Source of the DNA: an uncultured Candidatus Peribacteria bacterium
GTDB taxonomy: Bacteria > Patescibacteriota > Gracilibacteria > UBA1369 > LOWO2-01-FULL-3
Direction of reading: 5' to 3'
Length of the DNA: 39,838 nt
Assembly: GCA_964629065.1 (NCBI GenBank)
Contig: CAZVOZ010000001.1
Span: 26,472 to 66,309 of the forward strand
Under the pieces are notes generated by a model that saw only the letters and a list, made by a program, of their open reading frames with translations, searched no databases and had not been told where the DNA came from. Of the stretch, positions 2,635-39,838 are shown one piece after another; the first letter of the stretch is position 1; every line of letters starts with the position of its first letter. Made by a program: the position numbers and the translations under genes.

Positions 2635-3405
2635 TTATTTTTTAGGAGGGAGGGGAAAAAATTTACTGACCCTTTTTTCGTACTCAGCGAATGCGGGATT
2701 TTGAGACATTTTTTTCTCAAGCATAGGAATTCCTGAAACTTTGAGAATTAAAAATGAAATTGTTAGTGGGCCGAGAAGACTGATCCAGCCGAGTGGGGTG
2801 ACAAGAGCAATGAGCCAAATCCCCCACCATTGAGTAACTTCGCCGAAATAATTTGGATGACGACTGTATTGCCAAAGTCCGGTGGTAATCAGTTTTCCTT
2901 TGTTGGTTGGTTCTTTGATAAATTGTTTCAATTGCCAATCACCAACTACTTCAAAGAAAAAACCAATGAGCCAAACTGTAATTCCGAGAAAATCGAACAA
3001 GCCGATCTCTGAACTGCCTTGGATATTAATGGCCAAAATTGGCAGTGAAATGATGAATAGAAATAAGCCTTGGAGAAGGTATATCTGCAAATATGAACGG
3101 ATATAAAACCATTTCCCCCATTGTTGGCGCCATGCGAGATAACGATAATCTTCGGGTTTGCCCTTGTTTCTTTTATAAATGTGCCAAGCAAGTCTCAGTC
3201 CCCAAATTGTTACTAAGAGATTGACGATCAGGCTACGAATTTCAAAATCTTGACTGAGAAAGATGGAGGTCCAAGCTAAGAGTACAAAGCCAATCCCCCA
3301 AGCGACATCGGCAAGGTCGTTGCGCTTTCTGATGAGCGAGAGCAGAAACCAAGCGTTCATGTATATGAACAAGGTGAAAGCGAGAAGAAGGAAATAATTG
3401 GTCAT
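2635..3405 (-). CDS. DUF1295 / steroid 5-alpha-reductase-like integral membrane protein
   Basis: 256 aa, polytopic. The C-terminal block GLWQYSRHPNYFGEVTQWWGIWLIA is typical of DUF1295. ATGA overlap with the upstream gene. Confidence 0.8.
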   Translation of the reverse strand: MTNYFLLLAFTLFIYMNAWFLLSLIRKRNDLADVAWGIGFVLLAWTSIFLSQDFEIRSLIVNLLVTIWGLRLAWHIYKRNKGKPEDYRYLAWRQQWGKWFYIRSYLQIYLLQGLFLFIISLPILAINIQGSSEIGLFDFLGITVWLIGFFFEVVGDWQLKQFIKEPTNKGKLITTGLWQYSRHPNYFGEVTQWWGIWLIALVTPLGWISLLGPLTISFLILKVSGIPMLEKKMSQNPAFAEYEKRVSKFFPLPPKK

Positions 3406-3797
3406 AGGAATTTAGCGGCAATTGAGTAAGTGATAACGCTGACTAAAGCTCCGAGAGTCGCACCCCATGCGAGATCAACGATTGTGACGAGCAAAGGCCA
3501 ATCTTTGAGAGTGGCTAGATTTGTGAGGTCATAAGTGGCGTAACTAATAAAGCCGAAGAGCGCACCAAGTAAAAGTGCTTGCAGCCAAGAGCCTTTGTCC
3601 ATTGCCGGCATGATAGCGAAAATCACAAGACCGACGATGAAGATCAAATAAAAGATAATTGCGGCGGCCCAGTTGATTTCAGTTTTCATCAAAAATCCAA
3701 TTTGCTGAGTGTAAAAATTTTTGGCGATCAGCCCAAGCCAGACCATGTCGATGGCGAAAAAAACAGGAAGTGCAATGAGGTAGAGTTTGAGGAACAT
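3402..3797 (-). CDS. DUF2177-like small membrane protein
   Basis: 131 aa with about 4 TM segments. The N-terminus (FAIDMVWLGLIAKNFY) resembles DUF2177. Translationally coupled to the DUF1295 gene by a 4-nt overlap. Confidence 0.6.
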   Translation of the reverse strand: MFLKLYLIALPVFFAIDMVWLGLIAKNFYTQQIGFLMKTEINWAAAIIFYLIFIVGLVIFAIMPAMDKGSWLQALLLGALFGFISYATYDLTNLATLKDWPLLVTIVDLAWGATLGALVSVITYSIAAKFL

Positions 3798-3807
3798 ATT
3801 TTAATGG

Positions 3808-4437
3808 TTATTTGATAAGGTCCGCCCATACTTCAAGCCGGCGCATAAATGGAGGTGTCCATGGTGGGTTGTAACCAGCCCAATAAACAGTGCCATATTC
3901 TAGCCCGTCGCGCTCGAGGTATTGTTTTAATAGTTCTTTTTTCTCTTCAATTTTCTTTTCGGAATAAAAACCACTGAATTGAAGTACGGCTACTTCTTTG
4001 CTTTCAACTTTCTTAATTTTCACTCTTGAATCGTTGGGTTCTGGGAGGTTTTCCAAAGTGTATTGAGATGGCATGACAAATGCGAAAACGCGCTCATCTC
4101 CTTCAGATTCGGTCGATAAAACTGGAGCTGTCATGGCGATTTTTTCGGACTCACTTTCGATAACTGGTCCGGTCATAGCAATACTTTCGCGTCGACGGTT
4201 GTCGCCAAAAATGTAACCGGCGAGGATATTGAATGAACTACCGCTGGCATCGTCAAAACTACCTTTGACAGTTGTTTCAGCAATAATGTGCTCTGGTATT
4301 TCTCTGATCTCGTATTCTTTATCGTTGCTTATGACAGTATATGGCAAAAGTTCTACGCGACTACCAAAATATCCGAAAGCAATCCAAGCTAGAAAAATCA
4401 CCGCAAGGATGATGAAAAATAACAATGTTCTATTCAT
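3808..4437 (-). CDS. SOUL heme-binding family protein with N-terminal membrane anchor/signal
   Basis: 209 aa with SOUL/HEBP-like blocks: YEIREIPEHIIAET, GYIFGDN, the duplicated IAMTGPV and IAMTAPV, and YNPPWTPPFMRRLEVW. Confidence 0.75.
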   Translation of the reverse strand: MNRTLLFFIILAVIFLAWIAFGYFGSRVELLPYTVISNDKEYEIREIPEHIIAETTVKGSFDDASGSSFNILAGYIFGDNRRRESIAMTGPVIESESEKIAMTAPVLSTESEGDERVFAFVMPSQYTLENLPEPNDSRVKIKKVESKEVAVLQFSGFYSEKKIEEKKELLKQYLERDGLEYGTVYWAGYNPPWTPPFMRRLEVWADLIK

Positions 4438-5215: not shown

Positions 5216-5681
5216 GGAGGATTGTGTAATTGTGCGGAATTAATTCGAGGAATTTGTGGAAGGCTTGTTTTGTGAGTTCGAGGGTAGCGGTGTTATCGTT
5301 AGGATGGAAGCCAACAATTTCAGCACCGAGAACATCTTGGTGAATGTAGAATTCGACTTGTTGATCTGGATCGTTAAGGATGCAGAAAGGCGAAACGGAG
5401 CCTGGAGTTATTTTTAGTTTAGCATAAAGCTCGTTGTCTTTGCCGAAAGAGAGTTTGCTGGAGGTTTGGGCGATTTGGCGGAATTGTTTGAGGTCGAGGC
5501 GCTTGCTGTCGGGCATGATTACGAGGAAAGAGCGGTTTTTGTCTTGAAGAAACAAGCTTTTATATAAAAGGCCGGGGATTTTTTCGGGATGATTTTCGAC
5601 ATCTTCGCAGGTGAAAAGTGGTGGGTGTTCGTGTCTAATAAATTCGATTTCGTTGTCTGTGAGAAATTGTTCGGGATTCAT
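5208..5681 (-). CDS. YbaK/ProX-type aminoacyl-tRNA deacylase (prolyl-tRNA synthetase-associated editing domain)
   Basis: 157 aa with YbaK/PrdX-like blocks (KSLFLQDKN, KITPGSVSPFCILND). 8-nt overlap with tag. Confidence 0.7.
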   Translation of the reverse strand: MNPEQFLTDNEIEFIRHEHPPLFTCEDVENHPEKIPGLLYKSLFLQDKNRSFLVIMPDSKRLDLKQFRQIAQTSSKLSFGKDNELYAKLKITPGSVSPFCILNDPDQQVEFYIHQDVLGAEIVGFHPNDNTATLELTKQAFHKFLELIPHNYTILHD

Positions 5682-6951: not shown

Positions 6952-9501
6952 TTACATCTCTTCAGCAACTTCAACACCAAGTAGGGAAAGTCCGGTTTTT
7001 AAAATTTGGCTGGTGGCTTCGACGAGTTTGAGGCGGGCGTGTTTTTCCTTTTGGTCTGCGATTTTCAGGATTGGAACGACGGCATATAGGGTATTGAATT
7101 TTTGGGCTAGTTCGTAAATGTAATTGCTGAGGAGGTTTGGTTTGTATTCTTCGGCGGCGATGATGAGTTGTTCTTTGAATTTCGTGAGGTGGCGTTCTAG
7201 GTCTTCATAGACAGCGGTGGCTTTAGGATCGAGTTCGGCGGTTTGGTCGCCGGCGGCTTCTTGTTTGCGCAAGATGCTTTTGGCGCGGGCGTAAGTGTAT
7301 TGGAGGTAAGGCGCGCTATTGCCTTCGAGCGAGAGGATTTTGTCCCATTCGAAAGTGACATTGGTGGTGCGATTTTGGGAAAGGATGGCGTATTTGACTG
7401 CGCCAACGCCGATGATGTGGGCGAGTTTTGTAGTGTCTTGAAGGTCGGGATTTTTTTCGGTGATCAGTTTGGCGGCGCGTTCCTCGGCTTCGGTGAGAAC
7501 TTCGTCGAGAAGGACCGCCGTTCCGCTACGCGTGCTCATTTTGCCTTCTGGAAGGCTCATGCGGCCGAATTTGACATGAACGGGTTGGTCTTGGCAGAGG
7601 TTCATTTTTCGGGCGGCGGTGAAGAGTTGTTCGAAGTGAAGGCTTTGGGCGACATCGACAAAATAGAGGATTTTGGCGGGTTGGTGATTTTTAATTCGAT
7701 AATCGATCGTGGCTAAATCGCGGGTAATATAAAGTGTTGTGCCGTCTTTTTTACGCACAGGAACTGTTGCGAGGCCCTCTTCTGCGAATTCCAAGACGAG
7801 CGCGCCTTCTTCACCTTCGGTGATAACACCTTTTTTGAGTCCGAGGTCGATGATTGCGGTCATTTTGTCTTCGTAGAAGCTTTCTCCGAGGATTTGGTCG
7901 AAATGAATGCCGCCGAGGTGATCGTAGGTTTTTTGTAATGATTTGAGGCTTTCGTCGACAAACCACTGCCAAAGCGCGCGATTTTCGCTATCTCCTTCTT
8001 CAAATTTGCGAAATTCAGCACGGCCTTCATCGGCGAGGGTAGGATTTTTCTCTTCTTCGTCGTGAAATTGGATATAAAGTTTCAAAAGTTCATTTACAGG
8101 ATCTTTTTCAATGGTGTTTTTATCGCCCCATTTTTTATAAGCGGCAATTAGTCGTCCAAATTGAGTCCCCCAATCGCCAATATGGTTAATGCTAATAACT
8201 TTAAAACCGAGGAGTTTGTAAAGGTTATAGATGCTTTGGCCAATCACCGTAGAAAGCAAGTGATGTACGCCGAGGGGTTTGGCGATATTTGGTGAGCTAT
8301 ATTCAAGGATGATCGTTTTATCGCTATTGTGTTGTTGGCCGTATTGATCTTTTTGCTGCAGGATTTCGTCGATTTCCGCTTGGAGGGTTTCTTTGGAGAG
8401 AAAGATGTTGATAAAGCCAGGTCCGGCGATTTCAGTTTTGGCGATTTCGGCTGAAGGTTCGAGCTTTTCGAGAATCATGGCGGCAATTTCTTGCGGTGGA
8501 ATGTTCAGGTTTTTACTGAGTTGGAGGGCGATTGAGCAAGCATAATCGCCGTGAGTACTTTCGCGAGGGTATTCGAGGTGGAGATGGATTTCGTGATCGG
8601 GGAAAGCGGCTTTAGCGGCCTTTTGAAGGATTGATTCCAATCTATGTTTGAGTAAATCGGCAGTGATAATTGAAGTGTCAGCAACTGGTTTTGGCTTAGG
8701 TTTAGTTTTTTGCTTTTCGGCAATGGCTTGCTGGACGATAAAGTGCGCTTTATCTTTATTGAGAACTTTGGAATCGTCGGCTTCGCTCAGGCCTTTTATG
8801 CCGAGGTCGATGGCAGAAGTTTCTTCGGTGATGATGTATGGTTCGATTTGGCCGCCGATGTATTTGATTGCGGCGTTTTGGAATTCTTTAATGATCGCAC
8901 CAAATTCGTCGAGATGGATTTTGCTCAAGTCTTCGATCAGAATGAGGGCGTTTTTGGTTTCGCTTGTGAATTTGCTGCGATCGCATTCACGGTGATTCCA
9001 ATAGCGGCAAGTAATACCGGCTTGATCGATATAAGCGATTTCGCCTTCTTTGGCTTGTTTCACTTCGATTTCGCCGATGGCGCGGAAGGGTTCGCCGCCT
9101 TTAGTGTAAGTTAATTCAAGGTCGCCATGGATTTTGTCGAGGTCTTCGCCGCCGACGGGAAGCAAGTGTTGAAGCGAGAAATGGTTATAAAGATCGACCA
9201 ATAAATTGATGTGAGAGATTTCTTTACCAGCTTTGATGCGAGTAAGTAGAGCGGCGATTGCAGGTGGATATTTGTTTGGATTAACGCCGAATTTAGCATA
9301 GGCATCGGCCCAAGGTCGAACGGTGGGCAAATTGAGAATATCAGTGTCGGCAAACTCTTTCGCTCGGCGAGCGCAAATACCGCGTAAAAGGCTATCGACT
9401 GTGGAGAGTCGACGTTTGTTATCGATGCCTTTTAGAAGGATAACGCCGATTTTGAGATCGGGGTTTTGTTGAAAAATTTTTGGATCAACGCGTAATTTCA
9501 T
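6952..9501 (-). CDS. argS: Arginine--tRNA ligase with an N-terminal B3/B4 (PheRS-beta-like, COG3382-type) domain fusion
   Basis: 849 aa. Residues from about 285 to 849 are a full ArgRS: Add-1 N-domain, class I signature PLGVHHLLSTVIG, HIGDWGTQFG, GKMSTRSG, and a DALR-type C-terminus (APYLQYTYARAKSIL). Residues from about 1 to 235 match standalone B3/B4-domain proteins (LVDLYNHFSLQHLLPVGGEDLDKIHGDLEL, RYWNHRECDRSKFTSETKNALILIE). A K/P-rich linker (KQKTKPKPKP) joins the two parts. Confidence 0.9.
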   Translation of the reverse strand: MKLRVDPKIFQQNPDLKIGVILLKGIDNKRRLSTVDSLLRGICARRAKEFADTDILNLPTVRPWADAYAKFGVNPNKYPPAIAALLTRIKAGKEISHINLLVDLYNHFSLQHLLPVGGEDLDKIHGDLELTYTKGGEPFRAIGEIEVKQAKEGEIAYIDQAGITCRYWNHRECDRSKFTSETKNALILIEDLSKIHLDEFGAIIKEFQNAAIKYIGGQIEPYIITEETSAIDLGIKGLSEADDSKVLNKDKAHFIVQQAIAEKQKTKPKPKPVADTSIITADLLKHRLESILQKAAKAAFPDHEIHLHLEYPRESTHGDYACSIALQLSKNLNIPPQEIAAMILEKLEPSAEIAKTEIAGPGFINIFLSKETLQAEIDEILQQKDQYGQQHNSDKTIILEYSSPNIAKPLGVHHLLSTVIGQSIYNLYKLLGFKVISINHIGDWGTQFGRLIAAYKKWGDKNTIEKDPVNELLKLYIQFHDEEEKNPTLADEGRAEFRKFEEGDSENRALWQWFVDESLKSLQKTYDHLGGIHFDQILGESFYEDKMTAIIDLGLKKGVITEGEEGALVLEFAEEGLATVPVRKKDGTTLYITRDLATIDYRIKNHQPAKILYFVDVAQSLHFEQLFTAARKMNLCQDQPVHVKFGRMSLPEGKMSTRSGTAVLLDEVLTEAEERAAKLITEKNPDLQDTTKLAHIIGVGAVKYAILSQNRTTNVTFEWDKILSLEGNSAPYLQYTYARAKSILRKQEAAGDQTAELDPKATAVYEDLERHLTKFKEQLIIAAEEYKPNLLSNYIYELAQKFNTLYAVVPILKIADQKEKHARLKLVEATSQILKTGLSLLGVEVAEEM

Positions 9502-12325: not shown

Positions 12326-12371
12326 TGTCACATTTTAGAAAAATTTAAGAATCGTTTGTTAGGGTGGTGTC

Positions 12372-13220
12372 ATGAAGACATCACCCTTTAAAATTTCGGC
12401 GATTTTCTTACGCATTTGGACTGTGACAGTTTTGAGTCTTGGTGTGGGGAGTTTTTTTGCGTGGCGCGAATTGCCATTGGGTGAGTTTAAGATGTGGTTT
12501 TTAGATGTGGGTCAGGGTGATAGTGTTTTGATTCAGACGGCGGAAAATCATCAGATTTTGGTCGATGGCGGCGACGGCGAACGGATTATTGAAGAATTAT
12601 CTGCAGTAATGCCGTTTTTTGATCGTAGCTTAGACATGATTGTATTGACTCATCCACATGAAGATCATGTTGGTGGTTTGGTTGAGGTATTGAAAAAGTA
12701 TCGCGTGGAGAATGTTTTGTTGACTGGAGTTAATAATAGGAGCGGAATTTATAATGAGTTTTTGAATGAGATAATTGAAGATGATGTGGAATTTTTCATT
12801 GCGGATCAATTGATGGATTTTCGTTTTGGCGAAGTACTTTTAGATGTCTTGTATCCTTTTGAACCTTTGCTTTTAGAGGATTTTGATAATTTAAATAATT
12901 CTTCGGTTGTAATTATGGTTCATAATGAGGAGGAACGGATTTTACTAACAGGTGATATTGAAGAGGAAATTGAAGACGCCTTATTGGCGAAGCGGGTGGA
13001 TTTGAGAGCAGATGTTTTGAAATTGGGGCATCATGGGAGTAAAACTTCCTCTAGCTTGAAATTTTTAGCTAAGGTGAGACCAAAAAAAGCGGTAATCCAA
13101 GTGGGTGCTGGAAATAGTTATGGACATCCAGATGAGAGAGTTTTGCAAAATTTGGAAGCAGTTGGTGTGAAAGAGATTTCTAGGACGGATTTAGACGGAA
13201 GAATTGAACACCCTCCTTAA
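12372..13220 (+). CDS. ComEC/Rec2-related metallo-beta-lactamase domain protein (MBL domain plus one TM only)
   Basis: 282 aa with FLDVGQGDSVLIQT, LTHPHEDHVGGL, LKLGHHGSKTSS and YGHPDERVL. The polytopic Competence domain of full-length ComEC is absent. Confidence 0.8.
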   Translation: MKTSPFKISAIFLRIWTVTVLSLGVGSFFAWRELPLGEFKMWFLDVGQGDSVLIQTAENHQILVDGGDGERIIEELSAVMPFFDRSLDMIVLTHPHEDHVGGLVEVLKKYRVENVLLTGVNNRSGIYNEFLNEIIEDDVEFFIADQLMDFRFGEVLLDVLYPFEPLLLEDFDNLNNSSVVIMVHNEEERILLTGDIEEEIEDALLAKRVDLRADVLKLGHHGSKTSSSLKFLAKVRPKKAVIQVGAGNSYGHPDERVLQNLEAVGVKEISRTDLDGRIEHPP

Positions 13221-17717: not shown

Positions 17718-18122
17718 ATGGTGCACGATAAAATTGCGGTTCTTTTGAAAGATTTGGCGACTTTAAGAGATAAGTTAAAGGAAGTTAAAAAAGACATGAA
17801 GTCGGAAGAGAAGATTGAAACGGAAGATTATTTGTCTTTGAAAAAATCTTTGGCAGATCTGAAAAAACAGGTGAAGGATTTTGAAGATGACTATAATGAA
17901 AGTTTGAAGAAGGATAGTTTTTACAATCAGTTGCGGGAAATGAAGTTAAAAGCGGAGGAAGAAATCGCTTTGGCAAATGAAAAATTATTTGCTTTGGTTG
18001 AAGAGTTGCCACAGAAATTTTTTGAAATGGATGTGGATTTGGAAGCGGGAAGAGTGAAGGTGCAAATTCAGCCGGAGATGAGGGTTTATCTAAATGGCAA
18101 AGAAGAAAAGAAAAGAACTTAA
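17718..18122 (+). CDS. Hypothetical coiled-coil protein (K/E-rich)
   Basis: 134-aa ORF with heptad-like charged composition. No recognisable domain. Confidence 0.45.
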   Translation: MVHDKIAVLLKDLATLRDKLKEVKKDMKSEEKIETEDYLSLKKSLADLKKQVKDFEDDYNESLKKDSFYNQLREMKLKAEEEIALANEKLFALVEELPQKFFEMDVDLEAGRVKVQIQPEMRVYLNGKEEKKRT

Positions 18123-18242
18123 AAAAGGCTGAAAAAGCGATCTGCGGCGTCAAGATCGTCGCTCCCTCCTCATCGTATAAAACGATACGTCTCGTCGGTC
18201 GCTCCTTCTTTCCTTGCATCTCATTATTTTCAGCTTTTTTTT
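18121..18242. repeat. 122-bp palindrome-ended element, copy A (MITE/RPE-like)
   Basis: Arms are aaaaaaggctgaaaa ... ttttcagcttttttt (one mismatch or offset). The core aligns with copies B and C. Central CGTAT-aaaacg-ATACG hairpin at 18174-18189. The element exactly fills the gap between the stop at 18120-22 (+ gene) and the stop at 18241-43 (comM). Confidence 0.8.
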
Positions 18243-19734
18243 AGGTGAGCTTGGGGCGGCGGAATTGGATTGCTTCCATGATGTGATGGGTTTGGATTTT
18301 TTCCATCGCGTCGATGTCGGCGATGGTGCGGGCGATTTTGAGAATTTTGAGGTAAGCGCGATTGGAAAGGTTGAATTTTTCGACGGCTTGAAAGAGGAGT
18401 TTTTGTGATTCGAGTGAGATCTCGCAGTACATTTTGAGGTCTTCGATGTCGAGTTGATGGTTGAGTTTTCCTCTTTGGAGTTGAATAGTCCGAGCGCGTT
18501 CAATGTTTTCGAAGATGCGTTGGGTGGCGGCATGGTCAGGTTTTGTGAGTTTCTGGATTGGGCTGCGGGTGATGTGAACGAAAAGGTCGAAGCGATCGAT
18601 TAGAGGTCCGGAAAGCTTTTTCTGATATTGAGCAATTTGATGAGGCGTGCAGATACAGCGGATTTTACTGTCGGCAAGATTGCCGCAAGGACAGGGGTTC
18701 ATAGTGGCTAAAAGAGTAAAATCGCAGGGGAAAGTCGTGGTGGTTTGGTTGCGGCTGATTTTTACTTCACGATCTTCGAGTGGTTGGCGGAGGCCTTCAA
18801 GAGTTTTGTGGTTGAATTCAGCGATTTCGTCAAGGAAGAGAATTCCATTGTGGGCGAGGGAAATTTCACCGGGGCGAGGCGGCACTCCCCCACCGATCAA
18901 AGTGGAAAATGATGTGCCGTGGTGAACTTCGCGGAAGGGGCGGGATTTGATGAATTGATTCAAACCTCCAAGCAAACCGGCGATGGAAAATATTTTGGTG
19001 GTTTGGAGCATTTCTGTTTTCGTGAGAGTAGGTAAAAGTGAGCGAAAACTGCGGCAAAGGACGGTTTTGCCGCAACCGGGACTGCCGTAAAGTAAGGCGT
19101 GATGCGAGCCGGCGAGGGCGATTTCCAGAGCACGCTTCCCCTTTTCTAACCCGATTACTTGAGAAAAAGTAATCGGGCGCTGACGCAAGTTGATTCCGAC
19201 TCTTTTAGTGGGCTCGATAAGCTTTCGTCCGCTGATGTGGTCCAATAACGCTTTTAGATTGGAAACAGGAAGAACCTTTATTTCACTAAATAAGCTGGCC
19301 TCCTGAGCGTTGTCCACTGGCAAGAAAATTTGCTTGAAACCTGCTTTTTCAGCGGCTTCGGCGAATAAAATAGCCCCTCTAACTGGTTTTACTTCGCCGT
19401 TCAATGCTAATTCACCTACTAAAATCGAGCATTCAACATCATTGAATCGCACTTGACCACTAGCAATCAACAAACTCATAGCAATCGGTAGATCAAATAG
19501 CGTACCGTGCTTGCGCAGTTGTGCCGGTGCGAGATTGATAGTTTTACGGATAGGTAAGAATTTCATGCCGGAGTTTTTAATGCTTGAGCGAATGCGCTCT
19601 TTTGACTCCTGAACGGAGGTATCGCCTAACCCCACGATATTAAATGCCGGCATACCTTGACTGATGTCCGCTTCAACTTCAATGATTTGGCTATCGAGCC
19701 CACTAAAGGAGCAGGAAAAAACTTTTGCTGTCAT
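18241..19734 (-). CDS. comM: YifB/ComM family Mg-chelatase-like AAA+ ATPase
   Basis: 497 aa with the N-terminal Lon-protease-like ChlI domain, Walker A LLYGSPGCGKT, GILFLDEIAEF and the C-terminal Mg_chelatase_C block. Confidence 0.9.
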   Translation of the reverse strand: MTAKVFSCSFSGLDSQIIEVEADISQGMPAFNIVGLGDTSVQESKERIRSSIKNSGMKFLPIRKTINLAPAQLRKHGTLFDLPIAMSLLIASGQVRFNDVECSILVGELALNGEVKPVRGAILFAEAAEKAGFKQIFLPVDNAQEASLFSEIKVLPVSNLKALLDHISGRKLIEPTKRVGINLRQRPITFSQVIGLEKGKRALEIALAGSHHALLYGSPGCGKTVLCRSFRSLLPTLTKTEMLQTTKIFSIAGLLGGLNQFIKSRPFREVHHGTSFSTLIGGGVPPRPGEISLAHNGILFLDEIAEFNHKTLEGLRQPLEDREVKISRNQTTTTFPCDFTLLATMNPCPCGNLADSKIRCICTPHQIAQYQKKLSGPLIDRFDLFVHITRSPIQKLTKPDHAATQRIFENIERARTIQLQRGKLNHQLDIEDLKMYCEISLESQKLLFQAVEKFNLSNRAYLKILKIARTIADIDAMEKIQTHHIMEAIQFRRPKLT

Positions 19735-19775
19735 GCCAGTATGATGACAGTCGATTATTAAATTTTTCTAAAATT

Positions 19776-24141: not shown

Positions 24142-25941
24142 ATGGATAAGATTGCAATTTTGGATTTTGGAGGACAATACGCTCATCTGATTGCCAATAG
24201 GATTCGTCGATTGGGTGTTTATAGTGAGATTTTTGATGGCGAAACTCCAGCGAAAGACTTATTAGGCTATAAAGGTTTTATTTTGTCGGGTGGGCCGGCG
24301 AGCGTGAATGCTGTAGGGAGTGCAACTTGTGATCTAGGAATTTTCGAAATGGGTGTACCGATTTTGGCGATTTGTTATGGGCATCAATTGGTGGGCAAGG
24401 TGCTTGGAGGTGAAGTTGAAAAAGGAAAAGTGCGAGAATATGGCAAGGCTCAATTGAGATTATCTAGTAAGCCAGGGATTTTGGGAGATTTAGAAATGGA
24501 AGAAACGGTTTGGATGAGCCATTTTGACCAAGTGGTGAAGGCGCCGGAAGGGTTCAAGGTAGTAGGTTCGACTGAGGACTGTCCAATTGCGGCAATGGTG
24601 AATGAGGAAAAGGAAATTTACTGCGTTCAATTCCATCCAGAAGTAACGCATACGCCATGCGGAATGAAAATTTTGACGGATTTTGTGGCGCTGACGGGAG
24701 CAAAACGCGATTGGGATTTGGATCTTTATATCGAGCGAATTGTGGCGGAGATTCAAGAAAAGGTTGGTGAGCGAAAAGTGTTTTTAATGATTAGTGGTGG
24801 CGTGGATAGTACGGTGGCGTTTTTGCTGCTAAAGAAAGCTTTGGGTAACGATCGTGTTTATGGGCTTTTGGTCGATACCGGTTTGATGCGGATGAATGAA
24901 GCAGCGGAAGTTACGGAGGCGTTGAAACGAGTTGGCGTAGATAATTTGCATGTTTATGATGCCGAGAAGGAGTACTTGGAAGCTTTGCGTGAGGTTTATG
25001 AGCCGGAAGCGAAAAGACAGATTATTGGTGATTTGTTTTTGGATATTAAGGATAGAGTTTGCGCGGATTTGGGATTGGACTCCGAAGAATGGATTTTGGG
25101 GCAAGGCACGATTTATCCAGATACGATTGAGACGGGCGAGAGTAAGCACGCTGACAAGATTAAAACGCATCACAACCGCGTAGATAAGATTCAGGAGCTT
25201 TGTCGTCAAGGAAAGGTGATTGAACCTTTAAATCAATTGTATAAGGATGAAGTGAGGGCGGTGGGTGAGAAGTTGGGCTTAGAAAAGAAGATGGTAGAAA
25301 GACATCCATTTCCGGGTCCAGGTTTGGGTGTGAGAATTCTGTGTAGTAAAGGTGAAGATTATCCGAGTAATTTGGAAGAGGTTGAAAAAAATGCCGGAGT
25401 TTTGGCAGGAGAACTGGGTCTTGAAGTGAAGGTTTTACCTATAAAAAGTGTGGGAGTTCAGGGGGATGAACGCACATACCGACACCCGGCTGTGGTCTAT
25501 GGAAAGACAAAAGATTGGGATGGCCTAGACAGGTTGTCTACCCGTTTGACTAATCAAGTCCCGGAAGTGAATAGGGTGCTTTTGAGCTTATACCCTAATG
25601 ATTTAAAGGTTTTGAGTAGTCGAAATTGTTGGATTGATAAGGCGCGAGTTTTGACTACCCAACATGCCGATAAGATAGTTATGGACTTTGTTTGCGAGCA
25701 CGGTCTTGACAAAAACATTTGGCAGTTTCCGACGGTATTAATTCCAGTTGGTGTGGATGGTGGGGAAGAGGCAATTGTACTGCGGCCGGTGGAGAGCTTA
25801 GAAGCAATGACAGCAAATTTTTATCGCATGGATTTTGATTTGTTGGAGCAGTTGGTAGAGAAGCTAAAAATGGTACCAAATGTTTCGGCGGTGTTTTATG
25901 ATATTACGAATAAGCCGCCGGGGACTATTGAGTGGGAGTAA
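24142..25941 (+). CDS. guaA: GMP synthase (glutamine-hydrolysing), long form
   Basis: 599 aa with a GATase domain (ILDFGGQYAHLIANRIR, CYGHQ), the ATP-PPase P-loop SGGVDSTV, and a C-terminal dimerisation domain that is longer than the typical bacterial form. Confidence 0.93.
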   Translation: MDKIAILDFGGQYAHLIANRIRRLGVYSEIFDGETPAKDLLGYKGFILSGGPASVNAVGSATCDLGIFEMGVPILAICYGHQLVGKVLGGEVEKGKVREYGKAQLRLSSKPGILGDLEMEETVWMSHFDQVVKAPEGFKVVGSTEDCPIAAMVNEEKEIYCVQFHPEVTHTPCGMKILTDFVALTGAKRDWDLDLYIERIVAEIQEKVGERKVFLMISGGVDSTVAFLLLKKALGNDRVYGLLVDTGLMRMNEAAEVTEALKRVGVDNLHVYDAEKEYLEALREVYEPEAKRQIIGDLFLDIKDRVCADLGLDSEEWILGQGTIYPDTIETGESKHADKIKTHHNRVDKIQELCRQGKVIEPLNQLYKDEVRAVGEKLGLEKKMVERHPFPGPGLGVRILCSKGEDYPSNLEEVEKNAGVLAGELGLEVKVLPIKSVGVQGDERTYRHPAVVYGKTKDWDGLDRLSTRLTNQVPEVNRVLLSLYPNDLKVLSSRNCWIDKARVLTTQHADKIVMDFVCEHGLDKNIWQFPTVLIPVGVDGGEEAIVLRPVESLEAMTANFYRMDFDLLEQLVEKLKMVPNVSAVFYDITNKPPGTIEWE

Positions 25942-26063
25942 GGGAATGCCGAAAAAGGCGATCTGCGGCGTCAACTTCGTCGCTCCTTCCTCACCGTATT
26001 AGCACATACGCCTCCTTCAGTCGCTCCTTGTTTCCTTGCAGCTCATCCTTTTTCGGCATTCCC
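25942..26063. repeat. 122-bp palindrome-ended element, copy B (MITE/RPE-like)
   Basis: Perfect 17-bp arms: gggaatgccgaaaaagg (25942-58) and cctttttcggcattccc (26047-63). Central CGTAT-tagcac-ATACG at 25995-26010. Starts 1 nt after the guaA stop and contains the murI stop codon. Confidence 0.85.
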
Positions 26064-32438: not shown

Positions 32439-32883
32439 TTTTTGTTTTCGCAAAGAGGCGAAGGTGAGTTATGGCAAGTCTTTGTTTGAGCCGTTTTTGC
32501 GTCGAGGGGAGAAAGTTTTGGCGGCGCGGTTAAAGGAATTGCTTGGTGGAAAGCGAGGGGAATTAAATTTGATTTTGGTGGATGATGGGGCAATGCGCGA
32601 AGTGAATCGGGAATATCGTGGCAAGGATAAGCCGACGGATGTGATTTCGTTTGCGTATTTTGATGGCGAGCGGGTGTTGGGCGAACGGATTGTGGTGGGG
32701 GATATTTTCATTTCGGTGGAGACGGCGAAGCGGCAGGCTTTAGAGCATGGTGTGAGTTTGAAGCGGGAATTGGAAATGCTTTTTGTGCATGGGTTTTTGC
32801 ATTGTTTGGGGTTTGATCACAATGATGATAGGGAGGAGGAGGAGATGGAGGAGTGGGCGAGGAAGGTAAGGGGTAAGAACTAA
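32431..32883 (+). CDS. ybeY: rRNA maturation endoribonuclease YbeY
   Basis: Zinc motif HGFLHCLGFDH plus TDVISFAY. The ATG at 32431 (8-nt overlap with the upstream stop) is preferred over the track start at 32341. Confidence 0.88.
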   Translation: MIDFCFRKEAKVSYGKSLFEPFLRRGEKVLAARLKELLGGKRGELNLILVDDGAMREVNREYRGKDKPTDVISFAYFDGERVLGERIVVGDIFISVETAKRQALEHGVSLKRELEMLFVHGFLHCLGFDHNDDREEEEMEEWARKVRGKN

Positions 32884-33653
32884 GAACTTTTTAGCGATTT
32901 GGCGGATTGCCAACAGAGTTTGTACATAGAGCGATGGAATTCGGCGATTTCGGTGGATTCGATGATGATTGCCATTTTTTCCCGCCAAGAGGTATAAAGG
33001 ACTTTGTTGTCATAGATACTCACTTCAGGGGTAAAATTATACTCTGAAAAAGGAATTAAAATCATTTCACGATTTTCCTTTTTATCAAGCTTCTTCCGAA
33101 TCATTGCTTTTGAACTATTTGGAGCTATGCATTTTATGTGTATTCGTTTTTCAACTGCTCTGCGAGCATAATATTCAGGAAAAAAATTTGGCAAGACCTT
33201 ATCTAATTCCTCAACATTCACATAGGCAAGAATGTCGCTAGAAGAACTTAAAGTGTCCTCATAAGCTTCTCTTAGACCTTTTTCTCCTTCGAAAAAAGTC
33301 ACTTTTGGCTTAGTGCTTTGTGGGCTTTCAAGAGAAATTAAAGCTGGGAGGATTTTTTCGATTTGTTGTTTTTGCTTTTCGATTTTTTTGACTAATTCGC
33401 GCTTTTCACGCTCGAGATAATCGATGAGATTGCGAGGATCAATTGCTTTAAAGTGAGTAAAATTTTGGTGTTTAATTGAGGCAACAAGTCCTTTTTTAGC
33501 AAGACTCTTGATTATATCATATATATTTGTACGATTGATATCCGAGGCTTTAGCTAAAGAACTAGCACTCTGAGCCCCGAAACGAATCAGGTGAATATAA
33601 ATGATTGACTCCTTCTGACTGAGTCCCATTTTTTGAAGTGATTCCACAATCAT
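32880..33653 (-). CDS. TrmB family transcriptional regulator
   Basis: 257 aa. N-terminal winged HTH: LQKMGLSQKESIIYIHLIRFGAQSASSLAKASDINRTNIYDIIKSLAKKGLV. A coiled-coil linker and a TrmB-type C-terminal domain follow. Confidence 0.8.
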   Translation of the reverse strand: MIVESLQKMGLSQKESIIYIHLIRFGAQSASSLAKASDINRTNIYDIIKSLAKKGLVASIKHQNFTHFKAIDPRNLIDYLEREKRELVKKIEKQKQQIEKILPALISLESPQSTKPKVTFFEGEKGLREAYEDTLSSSSDILAYVNVEELDKVLPNFFPEYYARRAVEKRIHIKCIAPNSSKAMIRKKLDKKENREMILIPFSEYNFTPEVSIYDNKVLYTSWREKMAIIIESTEIAEFHRSMYKLCWQSAKSLKSS

Positions 33654-33792
33654 AGTGTTGTCAAATTATTTTCGACATCTAGATATTCTATACTATAAAA
33701 ACGCTTTTAAAACAATTTATTTGTGCGTTTGATCTTTCTCGACAAAATGCAGCGTAGATATTATCGTGAATTCTTGACATATGAAAATCAAA

Positions 33793-33825
33793 AATGACAT
33801 TTTAATGACATTTTGTCCTAGGACA
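33793..33825. promoter_or_regulatory. Operator-like motifs: tandem 11-bp AATGACATTTT x2 followed by the 12-bp perfect palindrome TGTCCTAGGACA
   Basis: Direct repeats at 33793-33803 and 33804-33814. Palindrome at 33814-33825. A further TTGACAT at 33774-80. All lie in the AT-rich divergent region between the TrmB regulator and the methyltransferase gene. Confidence 0.35.
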
Positions 33826-33886
33826 TAGACTTTTACATTGGTCGTGCTATTGAGTAAAGATTCAAAAATTTATAACCATCCATACA

Positions 33887-34807
33887 ATGATACAATTAGA
33901 ATGTTGTCCGCAACGATGTACCAGAGAAAATGGAGACGATAAAATCCAAATTTTCCCATCTTTACTAACATCAGTAAGCGGGATTGGTCTTGGGGTTGCT
34001 GATAGAATCAAAATGAATCTAGCTTTAAATTCAGCCCCAAAGCTTGAAATCAGCAGAAGGTTTTCTGGCATACTGCGTGCTACTGGTATAGATCAAGAGG
34101 ATGCCGACACAATTGGAAACGAAATCGCGTCTGATATCGCAAATGCTTCCTTGAATGAATTGCCTCTAATAGGAACAAAGTGGTTAAAATTTCTACAAGA
34201 AAAACAAATTACAGAATCAATAGACCATATTTTAATGCAGAGAAACTTATGGGTAGCAGGGGTGATAGCTTCGAGGCTATTAACAGGTACTGTGCTGGAT
34301 CATGATTCGGGAGATTCTTATGTGGCAGATGAGATTCAAAAACAGAGGTCGGATATAAACGTAAAGACTTGTGATTCTTATGATTTTAGGAGAGATGTGC
34401 AGGATTTACCTTTCGCTCTCTACGAATATGATAAAAAGGAATTACCTTATATTGAAGGTGAATTTGACAATGCAATTATGGCAACTGTTCTTCACCATTG
34501 CGATGAACCAGAACAAATGTTTGATGAAGTTGTAAGAAAAGTGAGAAGTGGTGGGCGAATATTTGTTCTGGAAAATACTTTCCACCAAGGCGATAGCGAT
34601 GAACAAAAACTAAATGTTATTTTTGACTGGATTTTTAACTCTATAATTCATGAAACAGTGTTACCCTTACCATTTAGCCATTTTTGCATGGAGGAATGGG
34701 AATATTTTCTGACTAGTAAAGGACTAAAAATAATGGAAAAATTAGAAATGGGTCACCATCCTTCCATTCCTTTAAACCACGTCCTATATGTTGTCGAAAA
34801 GAGATAG
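33887..34807 (+). CDS. SAM-dependent methyltransferase-like protein (Methyltransf_11-like C-terminal half; atypical motif I)
   Basis: 306 aa. FDNAIMATVLHHCDEPEQMFDEVVRKVRSGGRIFVLEN is typical post-motif II/III. Motif I reads VLDHDSGDS instead of VLDxGxGxG. The N-terminal extension of about 120 aa is unassigned. Confidence 0.55.
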   Translation: MIQLECCPQRCTRENGDDKIQIFPSLLTSVSGIGLGVADRIKMNLALNSAPKLEISRRFSGILRATGIDQEDADTIGNEIASDIANASLNELPLIGTKWLKFLQEKQITESIDHILMQRNLWVAGVIASRLLTGTVLDHDSGDSYVADEIQKQRSDINVKTCDSYDFRRDVQDLPFALYEYDKKELPYIEGEFDNAIMATVLHHCDEPEQMFDEVVRKVRSGGRIFVLENTFHQGDSDEQKLNVIFDWIFNSIIHETVLPLPFSHFCMEEWEYFLTSKGLKIMEKLEMGHHPSIPLNHVLYVVEKR

Positions 34808-35663
34808 CGTGATTGGCATTTTTGCTGGACTGGTCACCGCGGCGGGTTGGGGCACTATTGGATTATGGATAAAATATTTACCTATAGATAGTCTACTACT
34901 TGTTGCAATAAGGCTAGTTTTTGCAGGACTACTATTTAGTTTCGCTATTCTAAGAAAAAAAACAAAAATGACTCTTAGAATGGCTTTAGCTTCTTTCGTT
35001 TGTGGTGCTGTCCTATACTCCCAATTTCTTGTTACTATTGAGGCATTTCAATTACTGACTGTAAGCCAAGCATCTTTACTAACAAACTTGCAGATAGTTT
35101 TTTTAGTAATTTTTAGCCAACGTAGATTTTTACATATTTTACCTTTATGCATTTTACTAGTGGGACTCTTATTCTTCTTTAGCCCTTCAATAAATTTAAA
35201 CATATTCAGTATTTTTTTGGGCTTACTCTCCTCTTGTCTTTTTGCCGTCTACACTATTTGTCTTGATAAATTATTTGAAAAAAATTCTTTCGACTATTTG
35301 CCGATTATTTTTTTGACGGCGTTTATTATAAGTTTAATTACTCTGTTAATATTTGATACTGATATGACTTTAGATTTTACGAGTGTGGCATGGGGGCCAC
35401 TTTTGGGTCTGCTGTTATTTTCAACTGCTTGTGCTCATTTTGCCTTCTCGGTAGCTGTGAGTACAATTGGCAACTTCAAAGCAACTGTCATCTCATACTT
35501 TGCAATTGTAGTTGGCTTTGTAGTAGATATATTTTACGGCCATGAAATAACAATAACATCTGTGCTAGGGTTAATATTATGCATGTACGCATTAAACAGA
35601 ATGCTAAGAATAGAAACCTTCTACAATAACAAAATCCCTACTAATAAGCTCCGTAGCACTTAA
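34788..35663 (+). CDS. EamA/DMT superfamily transporter
   Basis: 291 aa with about 10 TM segments and a two-fold internal arrangement typical of EamA. 20-nt overlap with the methyltransferase gene. Confidence 0.7.
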   Translation: MLSKRDSVIGIFAGLVTAAGWGTIGLWIKYLPIDSLLLVAIRLVFAGLLFSFAILRKKTKMTLRMALASFVCGAVLYSQFLVTIEAFQLLTVSQASLLTNLQIVFLVIFSQRRFLHILPLCILLVGLLFFFSPSINLNIFSIFLGLLSSCLFAVYTICLDKLFEKNSFDYLPIIFLTAFIISLITLLIFDTDMTLDFTSVAWGPLLGLLLFSTACAHFAFSVAVSTIGNFKATVISYFAIVVGFVVDIFYGHEITITSVLGLILCMYALNRMLRIETFYNNKIPTNKLRST

Positions 35664-35692
35664 AACCAATGATGTAAACTACGAATCACCAT

Positions 35693-39224: not shown

Positions 39225-39838
39225 TTAGAGTGGGTGTTCGGGGATGATCTGAACTTCGGGGGTAAGGTCGATTTGGAATTTTTCGTGGACGGTTTTTTGG
39301 GCGTGGTGCATGAGGTCGAGGATTTCGTTTGCGGTGGCGCGGCCTTTGTTGATAAAGAAGTTGGCGTGTTTTTCGGAGATTTGGGCGTCGCCGATTTTGA
39401 AGCCTTTGAGGCCGGCTTGGTCGAGGAGGATGCCGGCGGGTTTTTCGGGGAAGGGGTTTTTGAAGAAGGAGCCGGTGGTGAGAACGCCGAAGGGTTGTTT
39501 TTGGAAGCGGTCTTGGCGAAGAGAGGTGATTCGAGTAGCTTGGGCTTCTTTGTCTTGGCAAGTTGTGATGCGGAATTTGGCGGAGAGGACGATTTTGTTT
39601 GTGCCTTTGAGGTTGCTGTGGCGGTAGTGGAGGTCGAGGTCTTGAGGGGACATTTGAAAAACGCACCCTACTGTGTCAACTGCGTCACCTCTTCCTCGTC
39701 GTATAAGGCCATACGCCTCCGTCAGAGGTTCCTCGTTTCCTTGTATGGGATCGTTTTTCAAATGTCCCTGGTTGTTAGCAGTAGGATCGAAGATTTCGGC
39801 GCTGATGAGGCAGTCTTTGGTTTCGAGGCCGCTGCAGC
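39225..39838 (-). CDS. murB: UDP-N-acetylenolpyruvoylglucosamine reductase, 5'-partial, carrying a 36-codon in-frame repeat-element insertion
   Basis: C-terminal MurB blocks: LHYRHSNLKG...ILSAKFRI, GSFFKNP, AGILLDQAGLKGFKIGDAQISEKHANFFIN. By hand translation the frame stays open from 39836 through the element (…AEIFDPTANNQGH-[LKNDPIQGNEEPLTEAYGLIRRGRGDAVDTVGCVFQ]-MSPQDLDLHYRHS…). Confidence 0.85.
   Translation of the reverse strand, partial: CSGLETKDCLISAEIFDPTANNQGHLKNDPIQGNEEPLTEAYGLIRRGRGDAVDTVGCVFQMSPQDLDLHYRHSNLKGTNKIVLSAKFRITTCQDKEAQATRITSLRQDRFQKQPFGVLTTGSFFKNPFPEKPAGILLDQAGLKGFKIGDAQISEKHANFFINKGRATANEILDLMHHAQKTVHEKFQIDLTPEVQIIPEHPL
39647..39768. repeat. 122-bp palindrome-ended element, copy C (inside murB)
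   Basis: Perfect 17-bp arms: gggacatttgaaaaacg (39647-63) and cgtttttcaaatgtccc (39752-68). Central CGTAT-aaggcc-ATACG at 39700-15. The core aligns with copies A and B. Confidence 0.85.

Follow-up and report, generated by a model that had tools for sequence, protein, structure and literature searches.

What are three palindrome-ended segments of equal length that lie among the housekeeping genes of an ultra-compact genome, and how did they come to be there? This question is raised by a 39,838-nt stretch of DNA from an uncultured Candidatus Peribacteria bacterium (the whole stretch is called the window hereafter, and positions refer to it unless another contig is named). Previously, a sequence-only reading described the segments as a family of non-autonomous palindrome-ended repeats. 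The present study finds that the family is genuine. The spread of the element across phyla, the folding of its minus strand and the location of its third copy inside a gene had been missed. We consider it likely that the segments are copies of a non-autonomous, mobile and structure-dependent interspersed hairpin repeat, of the ERIC, RPE and REPIN kind. Small hairpin repeats (REP, ERIC, RPE, Correia) as a rule do not extend beyond one genus or family, and the movement of most of them is not understood. Here, fresh insertions are seen in an ultra-compact genome, and the same architecture with an invariant loop recurs across distant bacterial groups.

Four copies of one element

The three segments (copies A, B and C) align end to end with a mean column identity of 76% in a MAFFT alignment, and a repeat finder independently recovers them as families D2, D4 and D6; the full-length alignment claimed for them earlier thus holds. 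Their common orientation is likewise confirmed and is shared by a fourth copy, D, on contig L001, which belongs to the same organism (100% identity over 4 kb) and extends the window. R1 and R2 denote covariance models of the element, and R2 has exactly three matches within the window. Each of the three copies has an outer stem of 14 to 17 bp and, at its center, the mini-hairpin CGTAT-N6-ATACG that had been noticed before. They fold far better than dinucleotide shuffles (z −3.5 to −8.0). The features are as follows, where P3 is the apical hairpin and the lower internal loop is the conserved loop described in the next section.

18121..18242, minus strand (the purine-rich folding strand): copy A, hairpin element; R2 83.8 bits, alignment and fold
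18142..18152, minus strand: copy A lower internal loop, 3′ strand; plus strand CTGCGGCGTCA, folding strand UGACGCCGCAG
18174..18189, minus strand: copy A apical hairpin P3 (CGTAT-N6-ATACG), which covaries family-wide
18210..18218, minus strand: copy A lower internal loop, 5′ strand; plus strand TTCCTTGCA, folding strand UGCAAGGAA
25942..26063, minus strand: copy B, hairpin element; R2 97.3 bits, alignment and fold
25963..25973, minus strand: copy B lower loop, 3′ strand; folding strand UGACGCCGCAG
25995..26010, minus strand: copy B apical hairpin P3; fold and family covariation
26032..26040, minus strand: copy B lower loop, 5′ strand; folding strand UGCAAGGAA
39647..39768, minus strand: copy C, hairpin element inside the murB coding sequence; alignment, fold and in-frame read-through
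39668..39678, minus strand: copy C lower loop, 3′ strand; UGACACAGUAG, the A-U variant of a covarying pair
39700..39715, minus strand: copy C apical hairpin P3; sequence and fold
39737..39745, minus strand: copy C lower loop, 5′ strand; UACAAGGAA
39225..39838, minus strand: C-terminal part of murB, the host gene of copy C, running off the window end; mapping to L001
L001:4358-4481, orientation as copies A to C: copy D, 0.5 kb past the window end, between ilvN and a tRNA gene

Copy A fills the gap between the stop codons of two convergent genes, as had been stated: a gene of 134 aa (17718-18122, plus strand) and comM (18241-19734, minus strand). Copy B begins directly after the guaA stop codon (25939-25941, plus strand), and on its other side lies a convergent racemase gene (minus strand), whose last six codons and stop (26043-26045) are supplied by copy B itself. 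A publicly annotated gene of 82 aa (L001:4341-4589, minus strand) runs through the stop-poor pyrimidine strand of copy D and has no Pfam match; it is very likely a spurious open reading frame (ORF) made by the element. As to the host, the window encodes a T4SS_pilin gene, typical of candidate-phyla bacteria, and the relatives nearest to it carry the label Candidatus Gracilibacteria or Peregrinibacteria.

The purine-rich strand folds into a covarying hairpin

On the purine-rich strand (the minus strand of the window), the element forms one rod-like hairpin of ~120 nt. Its basal stem, P1, is free in sequence but keeps its pairing, and its outermost pair most often lies 23 to 24 nt from the lower loop. 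Above P1, most copies have a tandem G·A step and then a 3-bp helix, U-R-C/G-Y-A. The lower loop is asymmetric, with AA opposite R-N-N, and is followed by an invariant G-C pair and an invariant GA/GA step; the conserved strands read U-R-C-AA-G-GA on the 5′ side and GA-C-RNN-G-Y-A on the 3′ side. Stem P2 is variable (12 to 16 bp) and consists, in the window subfamily, of GGAGCGAC/GGAGCGAC with tandem G·A. A purine-rich junction and P3, of 5 to 6 bp, complete the rod. The length of the core is fixed at 66 to 70 nt.

The stems P1, P2 and P3 covary strongly. In alignment A2, which contains 50 homologs out of 55 species-representative loci, 84% of the cells are paired, compared with 62% in column shuffles and 30 to 42% in slid-partner controls, and the covariation score of 0.545 (0.166 for the shuffles) was matched by 0 of 500 shuffles. 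Alignment A4 has 75 sequences, including copies recovered by a loop-anchored pattern; here 90% of the cells pair (68% in shuffles), with a score of 0.582 (0.181 for the shuffles) and covariation at each of the five P3 pairs. The middle pair of the 3-bp helix (columns 24-104) covaries as well, with GC in 28 sequences and AU in 21. That CAAGGAA, CGTAT and ATACG do not vary in A2 is a consequence of the first search pattern, which forced them. The loop-anchored set lifts this bias for P3, which occurs there as CGUAU/AUACG, UGUAU/AUACA, CGUAC/GUACG, UGUGC/GCACA and CAUAC/GUAUG. Elements of the 3′ loop strand that the first pattern did not force, UGAC and G..A, are invariant in all sequences of both alignments (50/50 and 75/75), and the GA/GA step in 75/75.

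Which strand folds can be read from the mismatches. G·U/U·G cells number 118, as against 29 A·C/C·A cells, and this excess of wobble pairs indicates that the purine-rich strand is the one that folds. Besides, G·A mismatches outnumber C·U mismatches, and the folding energies sum to −2763 kcal/mol on the purine strand, compared with −2396 kcal/mol on the other. Either form of the purine strand, RNA or single-stranded DNA, would satisfy the pairing data, as G·T pairs and tandem G·A pairs are stable in DNA as well.

These results also change the view of the element's ends. Terminal inverted repeats of 15 to 17 bp had been proposed, and an outer stem of about that length is indeed present, but not as conserved ends of the transposase type. 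The P1 arms differ by ~30% between copies of one genome, yet stay complementary. Since the end sequences vary while the pairing persists, the "terminal inverted repeats" are a covarying stem.

Occurrence across bacterial phyla

The first search pattern, which combined the apical hairpin with one loop strand, found 55 loci in species-representative genomes, where we estimate that ~3 would be expected by chance. A second pattern, anchored on the two lower-loop strands only, gave at least 120 metagenome loci. Among the fetched loci, R1 and R2 had 74 and 121 matches, respectively. Together, the two independent patterns and the two covariance models yield >200 copies, so the further copies looked for with such models do exist, and in many phyla. 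The hosts include Patescibacteria, among them many Saccharibacteria; Omnitrophota, in which a metagenome-assembled genome (MAG) holds several copies; seven Treponema species, among them the complete genome of T. vincentii; Clostridia and Bacillota; Smithella and Desulfobulbus (deltaproteobacteria); Myxococcales; Planctomycetota; a gammaproteobacterial MAG; and many metagenomes. The element family is multi-copy, present in many phyla and not private to one lineage. Among the closed genomes with the element are those of T. vincentii OMZ 806 (NZ_CP050497.1), a Saccharimonadales member (contig JBEKOJ010000001.1) and a Planctomycetota member (chromosome CP070790.1).

The first pattern had 0 viral matches. 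The second had 20, of which only one contig (L190) carries true copies; the other 19 are coding sequence of T4-like phages near phoH, thyX, gp32 and gp59, with no hairpin. A stretch of ~85 nt in about 20 T4-like phage contigs (L191-L209, L101, L134) matches the loop-anchored pattern exactly; as it does not have the hairpin fold, it is conserved coding sequence that mimics the motif words.

Copies also occur in unusual settings. One locus (L054) has a tandem array of four units. Metagenome contig Ga0265295_1009763 (L154) has two head-to-tail arrays, of five units (3138-3825) and three units (5242-5594), with a period of ~120 to 125 nt; they flank an AAA_14/DUF4143 ATPase gene, with PIN toxin genes and an IS3 transposase near, and in some units the 3′ half is swapped for an unrelated GTGAATAGTGAATGG-rich insert. 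Sample Ga0265295 as a whole contains dozens of nearly identical copies. In a Bacillota MAG (JAMCWA010000070.1; L041:7393-7641, minus strand), two copies, one of them degenerate, lie in a 23S-5S rRNA spacer, where the purine strand is the rRNA sense strand. Two further copies lie in opposite orientations inside a tRNA cluster. Copies tolerate transcription within rRNA and tRNA operons and, once, translation inside murB.

In two groups the element has a conserved neighbor. In T. vincentii OMZ 806, a full-length TD-2 RNA (RF03162, 79.7 bits; L049:1179-1275, minus strand) directly adjoins the element, and the Treponema copies have the conserved flank AAAAGGCTTACGG in common, which together suggest a composite repeat in Treponema. 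TD-2 was considered as the identity of the element itself and rejected, since this sole Rfam match in T. vincentii lies beside the element and not over it. In Saccharibacteria, a second conserved, covarying hairpin follows the element immediately on its 3′ side, as read along the purine strand (L037:2150-2210; also at L010, L015, L016, L024, L043, L050, L055 and L057), with the form GCGCCAGC-GGUGCGG-CCAG-UUAA-CUGG-ACGGCAG-GCUGGCGC. The genes flanking these copies are non-homologous, so the arrangement is a longer variant of the element and not one orthologous locus.

Empty sites and insertion junctions

A sister genome (GCA_017999295.1), syntenic with the window at ~91% nucleotide identity, is without any of the four copies, and R2 finds none in its loci. 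The sites of A, B and D are cleanly empty there, and the site of C holds 25 nt in place of the insert-bearing 133 nt. A more distant relative at 84% identity (L061) served as the outgroup. The sites compare as follows.

Copy A: empty site (locus L064 of the sister genome) TAA-AAA-TTT-CTA, with a 6-nt gap; window genome +112 nt, no duplication
Copy B: empty site (L064) with a guaA/racemase overlap of 17 nt; window genome +130 nt, direct repeat AAGGGA, 7 nt of filler
Copy C: empty site with 25 nt of murB, swapped for 133 nt in the window genome, net +108 nt; target deletion
Copy D: clean empty site; window genome +139 nt, TAG duplicated (3 bp), 11 to 14 nt of filler

This presence/absence polymorphism shows recent insertion. 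The copy B site is empty in the outgroup too, and copy C is absent from close MurB homologs; B and C are therefore gains in the lineage of the window.

The junctions are polar. Microhomology of 3 to 6 nt is found at one end only, that of the purine-strand 3′ terminus (AAAAA at A, AAGGGA at B, GGGG at C and TAG at D), and the other end has filler, a short duplication or a deletion. The A- and T-tracts of copy A come largely from the target, as AAAAA/TTT is present in the empty site. The termini GGGA...TCCC are common to several copies of the window subfamily and so belong to the element. Assemblies break inside element copies. In practice, the element thus breaks metagenome assemblies, besides creating spurious ORF calls.

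An in-frame copy within murB

The complete murB gene (L001:4839-5834) encodes 331 aa with PF01565 and PF02873. Copy C is translated in frame within it, giving a peptide of about ...GHLKNDPIQGNEEPLTEAYGLIRRGRGDAVDTVGCVFQMS..., and the net gain relative to the sister gene amounts to 36 codons. The corresponding segment is missing from all the close MurB homologs compared (P0002-P0005, P0014). In the AlphaFold model (mean pLDDT 89.5), the insert lies between strands 138-145 and 186-190, and its pLDDT is <50 at residues 151-170 and 176-178. The insert is thus predicted to be a disordered loop. Such a model fits a tolerated surface insertion, as described for the Rickettsia palindromic elements (PMC10969869).

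Position and polarity relative to genes

For this comparison, polarity was read along the pyrimidine strand from 5′ to 3′, with the copies from the first pattern as set 1 and the loop-anchored copies as set 2. An ORF in the pyrimidine sense ends at the base of P1: in 27 of 53 set-1 copies its stop codon lies 13 to 31 nt before the loop, mostly 22 to 29 nt, and set 2 has the same sharp peak at 23 to 29 nt. A minor peak of stops falls at a TGAAAA motif within P1. Stops of purine-sense ORFs on the other side are scattered over 5 to 88 nt. A stop triplet is present at the P1 base in 30% of the copies without a preceding ORF, versus 47% of those with one, which is a weak enrichment.

Tabulated by location, most copies are intergenic, and only 1 of the 50 set-1 copies examined is clearly intragenic; 19 of 48 lie between co-directional and 10 of 48 between convergent genes. 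The purine strand is antisense to both neighbors in most loci, and it is sense relative to a gene for all four copies of the window genome. With respect to GC skew, the pyrimidine strand lies on the G-rich strand in 36 of the 40 informative loci of set 1, an orientation that is confounded with gene orientation in most loci. The four copies of the window genome all agree with the local GC skew. The GC skew of the plus strand is very strong and uniform over positions 1-38000 (+0.11 to +0.55 per 2 kb), regardless of gene strand.

A probable mobile hairpin repeat and how it may move

The structure, the empty sites and the multi-copy occurrence in many phyla agree with the reading that we prefer, a mobile hairpin repeat that is non-autonomous and depends on its structure. 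As the sequence-only reading had it, no transposase or integrase is encoded in the window: the Pfam scan of 29 window ORFs and the gene tables consulted show no transposase, integrase or reverse transcriptase. All-against-all BLASTP of the ORFs of 55 and then ~190 loci (~1.7 Mb of flanks) found no specific shared partner gene or autonomous version. The AAA_14/DUF4143 ATPase of the tandem-array contig, with its nearby IS3 transposase, was considered as a mobilizing partner and set aside, as it is not consistent across loci.

The asymmetry of the junctions suggests polar copying of a single-stranded purine-strand template. According to this proposal, the purine strand, as RNA or as DNA, would be copied into new sites in a polar manner. 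Synthesis would start at its 3′ end from a target 3′-OH that shares 3 to 6 nt of microhomology, in a target that often holds a stop codon (TAA or TAG), and resolution of the far junction would be untidy, leaving filler, a small duplication or a loss of target sequence. The conserved lower loop would be recognized by an enzyme acting in trans. Element termini matching TAA or TAG would land at stop codons, where they would be harmless in a compact genome, and selection in such genomes would retain copies only where they begin at a stop codon or lie in a protein loop that tolerates them. We hold this scheme of microhomology-primed copying, drawn from four events, with low confidence. Taken further, the element would represent a cross-phylum class of ~120-nt single-strand mobile elements, with the G·A-rich loop as the enzyme's handle and microhomology-primed "stop-codon homing", moving by SINE-like retroposition rather than by cut-and-paste or Y1 transposition; this extension is speculative, and we would not expect it to hold.

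Several observations weigh against mobility as we picture it. With no mobilizing enzyme found, the mechanism rests on four junction pairs. The outgroup also carries an element at the site of copy A, behind comM; its P1 differs, and its spacer measures 9 nt. Some absences may therefore be deletions: copy A may be ancestral, with a precise loss in the sister genome, or the site may have been hit by insertion twice. The target-site duplications have no consistent length (0, 3 and 6 bp) and match no known bacterial transposase; repair-mediated capture or later mutation could be an alternative. Truncated copies show no clear excess at the 5′ end (~6 to 7 versus 3), a count subject to ascertainment problems. 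An RNA intermediate would need antisense or convergent transcription, since at most loci the purine strand runs antisense to the gene that it follows. The orientation bias relative to GC skew, strong in set 1 (36 to 4), is weak in set 2 (51 to 29). Furthermore, two apparently orthologous copies downstream of phoH (L017 and L059) have compensated changes in P1, which may mean that resident copies are under selection and so have a function for the host.

The mobile-repeat reading makes several questions testable: whether a loop-recognizing enzyme is universal or spread horizontally, whether the route is by RNA or by single-stranded DNA, and how streamlined genomes tolerate the element, including an extra loop in the essential enzyme MurB.

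Relation to known repeat families

Rfam 15, whose families include TD-1, TD-2, lacto-2 and the known ribozymes, has no match in the window at gathering thresholds, and none for copy A at E ≤ 10; the loci L058 and L037 gave only far-below-threshold chance matches (E 3.7 to 7.5). In the literature, searched as full text, we found no description of the element family. Among hairpin repeats, it is unusual in its cross-phylum spread, its asymmetric G·A-rich loop, its polar contact with stop codons and its heterogeneous, polar junctions.

The likeness to ERIC and RPE that had been pointed out earlier is apt, in view of the insertion polymorphism with the sister genome and the in-frame copy in murB. 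ERIC (IRU) elements, imperfect palindromes of ~127 bp, are nearly the same size and each forms one long imperfect hairpin. They likewise lie in transcribed intergenic regions near gene ends, have no transposase and vary in presence between close relatives. However, there is no sequence similarity, and ERIC is found only in Enterobacteria and Vibrio, whereas the present family occurs in many phyla and has the asymmetric loop with tandem G·A and the sharp polar contact with stop codons. RPEs are also palindromic repeats of ~100 to 150 bp that can sit in frame within housekeeping genes and add a peptide loop (summarized in PMC10969869). In contrast to our element, which is conserved at the level of nucleic-acid structure, RPEs are confined to Rickettsia, are mostly intragenic and encode a conserved peptide. 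Membership among the RPEs was rejected, since only copy C lies in a long ORF and copy B closes the same frame by UGA.

REPs and REPINs share with the element their extragenic hairpins downstream of genes, their clusters and tandem arrays, compensatory pairing and non-autonomy (for REP distribution, see PMC3733652). But a REP is a unit of 20 to 40 bp whose tag, GTAG or CGTC, is unpaired, and a REPIN is a symmetric, inverted doublet of such units, whereas the element is one asymmetric hairpin of 120 nt, whose arms are neither inverted copies of each other (UGCAAGGAA versus UGACGCNGCAG) nor self-palindromic. No RAYT (Y1 transposase) gene was seen near copies in the ~1.7 Mb of clustered flanking sequence. 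A classical miniature inverted-repeat transposable element (Correia, IS630 type) does not fit either: besides the divergence of the P1 ends, a fixed-length duplication is missing (none at A, 6 bp at B, a target deletion at C, 3 bp at D).

Alternative explanations

The frequent contact with gene ends raises the possibility that the element benefits its host as an RNA module acting in cis at the 3′ ends of genes, and that its spread was secondary. Much as proposed for REP and ERIC, it might block 3′ exonucleases, provide a site for RNase processing between cistrons or work in connection with translation termination. A large fraction of copies do have the stop of the gene upstream exactly at the P1 base, 19 of 48 lie between co-directional genes, and the pairing is maintained, including at the L017/L059 sites. 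However, an RNA that continues from the abutting gene carries the pyrimidine strand, which loses the G·U and G·A pairs that covariation favors and in which the conserved loop would become C/U-rich mismatches. The sister genome manages without all four copies at housekeeping genes, and copies lie within rRNA and tRNA operons and murB. We regard a cis-acting module as rather unlikely.

The strong stem covariation, the loop nucleotides that are invariant across phyla and the fixed size of the core could also speak for a structured RNA made from the purine strand, acting in trans, binding a protein or cleaving itself as a ribozyme, with the asymmetric loop as the functional site. The purine strand is indeed in the sense direction in the Bacillota rRNA spacer and, relative to a gene, at the four copies of the window genome. 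The antisense position in most loci is at odds with this explanation, as are the variable copy number with tandem arrays, the presence/absence between close relatives and the in-frame translation of copy C; a consensus signal scan saw no promoter or terminator signature of the element's own, and no Rfam ribozyme or RNA family matches. Such an RNA appears distinctly improbable to us. Particular motifs were considered as well. The resemblance of the lower loop to a kink-turn is partial: the GA/GA step is present in 75/75 sequences, but the non-bulged strand has four extra nucleotides (C-R-N-N) between GA and the helix. SRP-like and hairpin-ribozyme readings of the loop amount to word-level resemblance, without Rfam support. 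The lacto-2 RNA motif is confined to Lactobacillales (Weinberg et al. 2007, PMC1950547), and the copies tested matched neither its Rfam model nor any other.

A recombination site that is active as single-stranded DNA, like attC or the ends of IS200/IS605, and is recognized by its shape by a recombinase or HUH nuclease, would explain why shape rather than sequence is conserved, with asymmetric unpaired bases. The element resembles attC sites also in its size (~60 to 140 nt for attC), its place right after stop codons and its fixed orientation relative to the ORF. The orientation bias relative to GC skew and the stability of the G·T and tandem G·A pairs in DNA are compatible with such a site. 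However, the R and L box consensus is lacking (R′ GTTRRRY and R″ RYYYAAC are absent from the alignments) and the base of P1 varies. Near the copies there is neither an integrase nor a Y1 transposase nor a cassette array; in the window, the copies lie 7.8 and 13.7 kb apart, among scattered housekeeping genes instead of cassettes. As for IS200/IS605, the folding strand is on the C-rich strand, opposite to the IS608 rule, and the flanks of 11 window-subfamily copies have no constant tetranucleotide at the junctions. This explanation, too, has little probability in our estimation.

Finally, the bidirectional intrinsic terminator that the sequence-only reading saw in the A-tract, stem and T-tract of copy A between convergent genes, a setting that 10 of 48 copies share, is very improbable, given that these tracts are largely target-derived and missing from B, C and D, that a scan for the terminator consensus gives nothing terminator-like at copies A or B, and that copies in the 23S-5S spacer, in both orientations in the tRNA cluster and in murB make a general role of this kind unlikely.

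Other features of the window

Apart from the element, a 2.8-kb segment of the window (32868-35691), encoding a TrmB-like regulator, a methyltransferase and an EamA transporter, is missing from the sister genome (L060) and from a contig of the same population (L003). A more distant relative (L062) has methyltransferase and EamA genes at the matching position, so this is an indel polymorphism, and the segment has probably been deleted from the others.

An arginyl-tRNA synthetase of 849 aa (6952-9501, minus strand) has an N-terminal B3/4 domain (PF03483), a domain normally found in the beta subunit of phenylalanyl-tRNA synthetase. A 44-nt inverted repeat (I1; 12332-12375 and 19731-19774, 77% complementary) covers the start codons of two divergently placed genes, 12372 (plus strand) and comM at 19734 (minus strand), and may be a shared 5′ leader or promoter motif. 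A second inverted repeat of 33 nt (I2; 19187-19219 and 19692-19724, 85% complementary) lies inside comM, with its arms 472 nt apart. A 34-nt direct repeat (D7; 206-239 and 302-335, 97% identity, 96 nt apart) is found in an unannotated ORF at 182-517.

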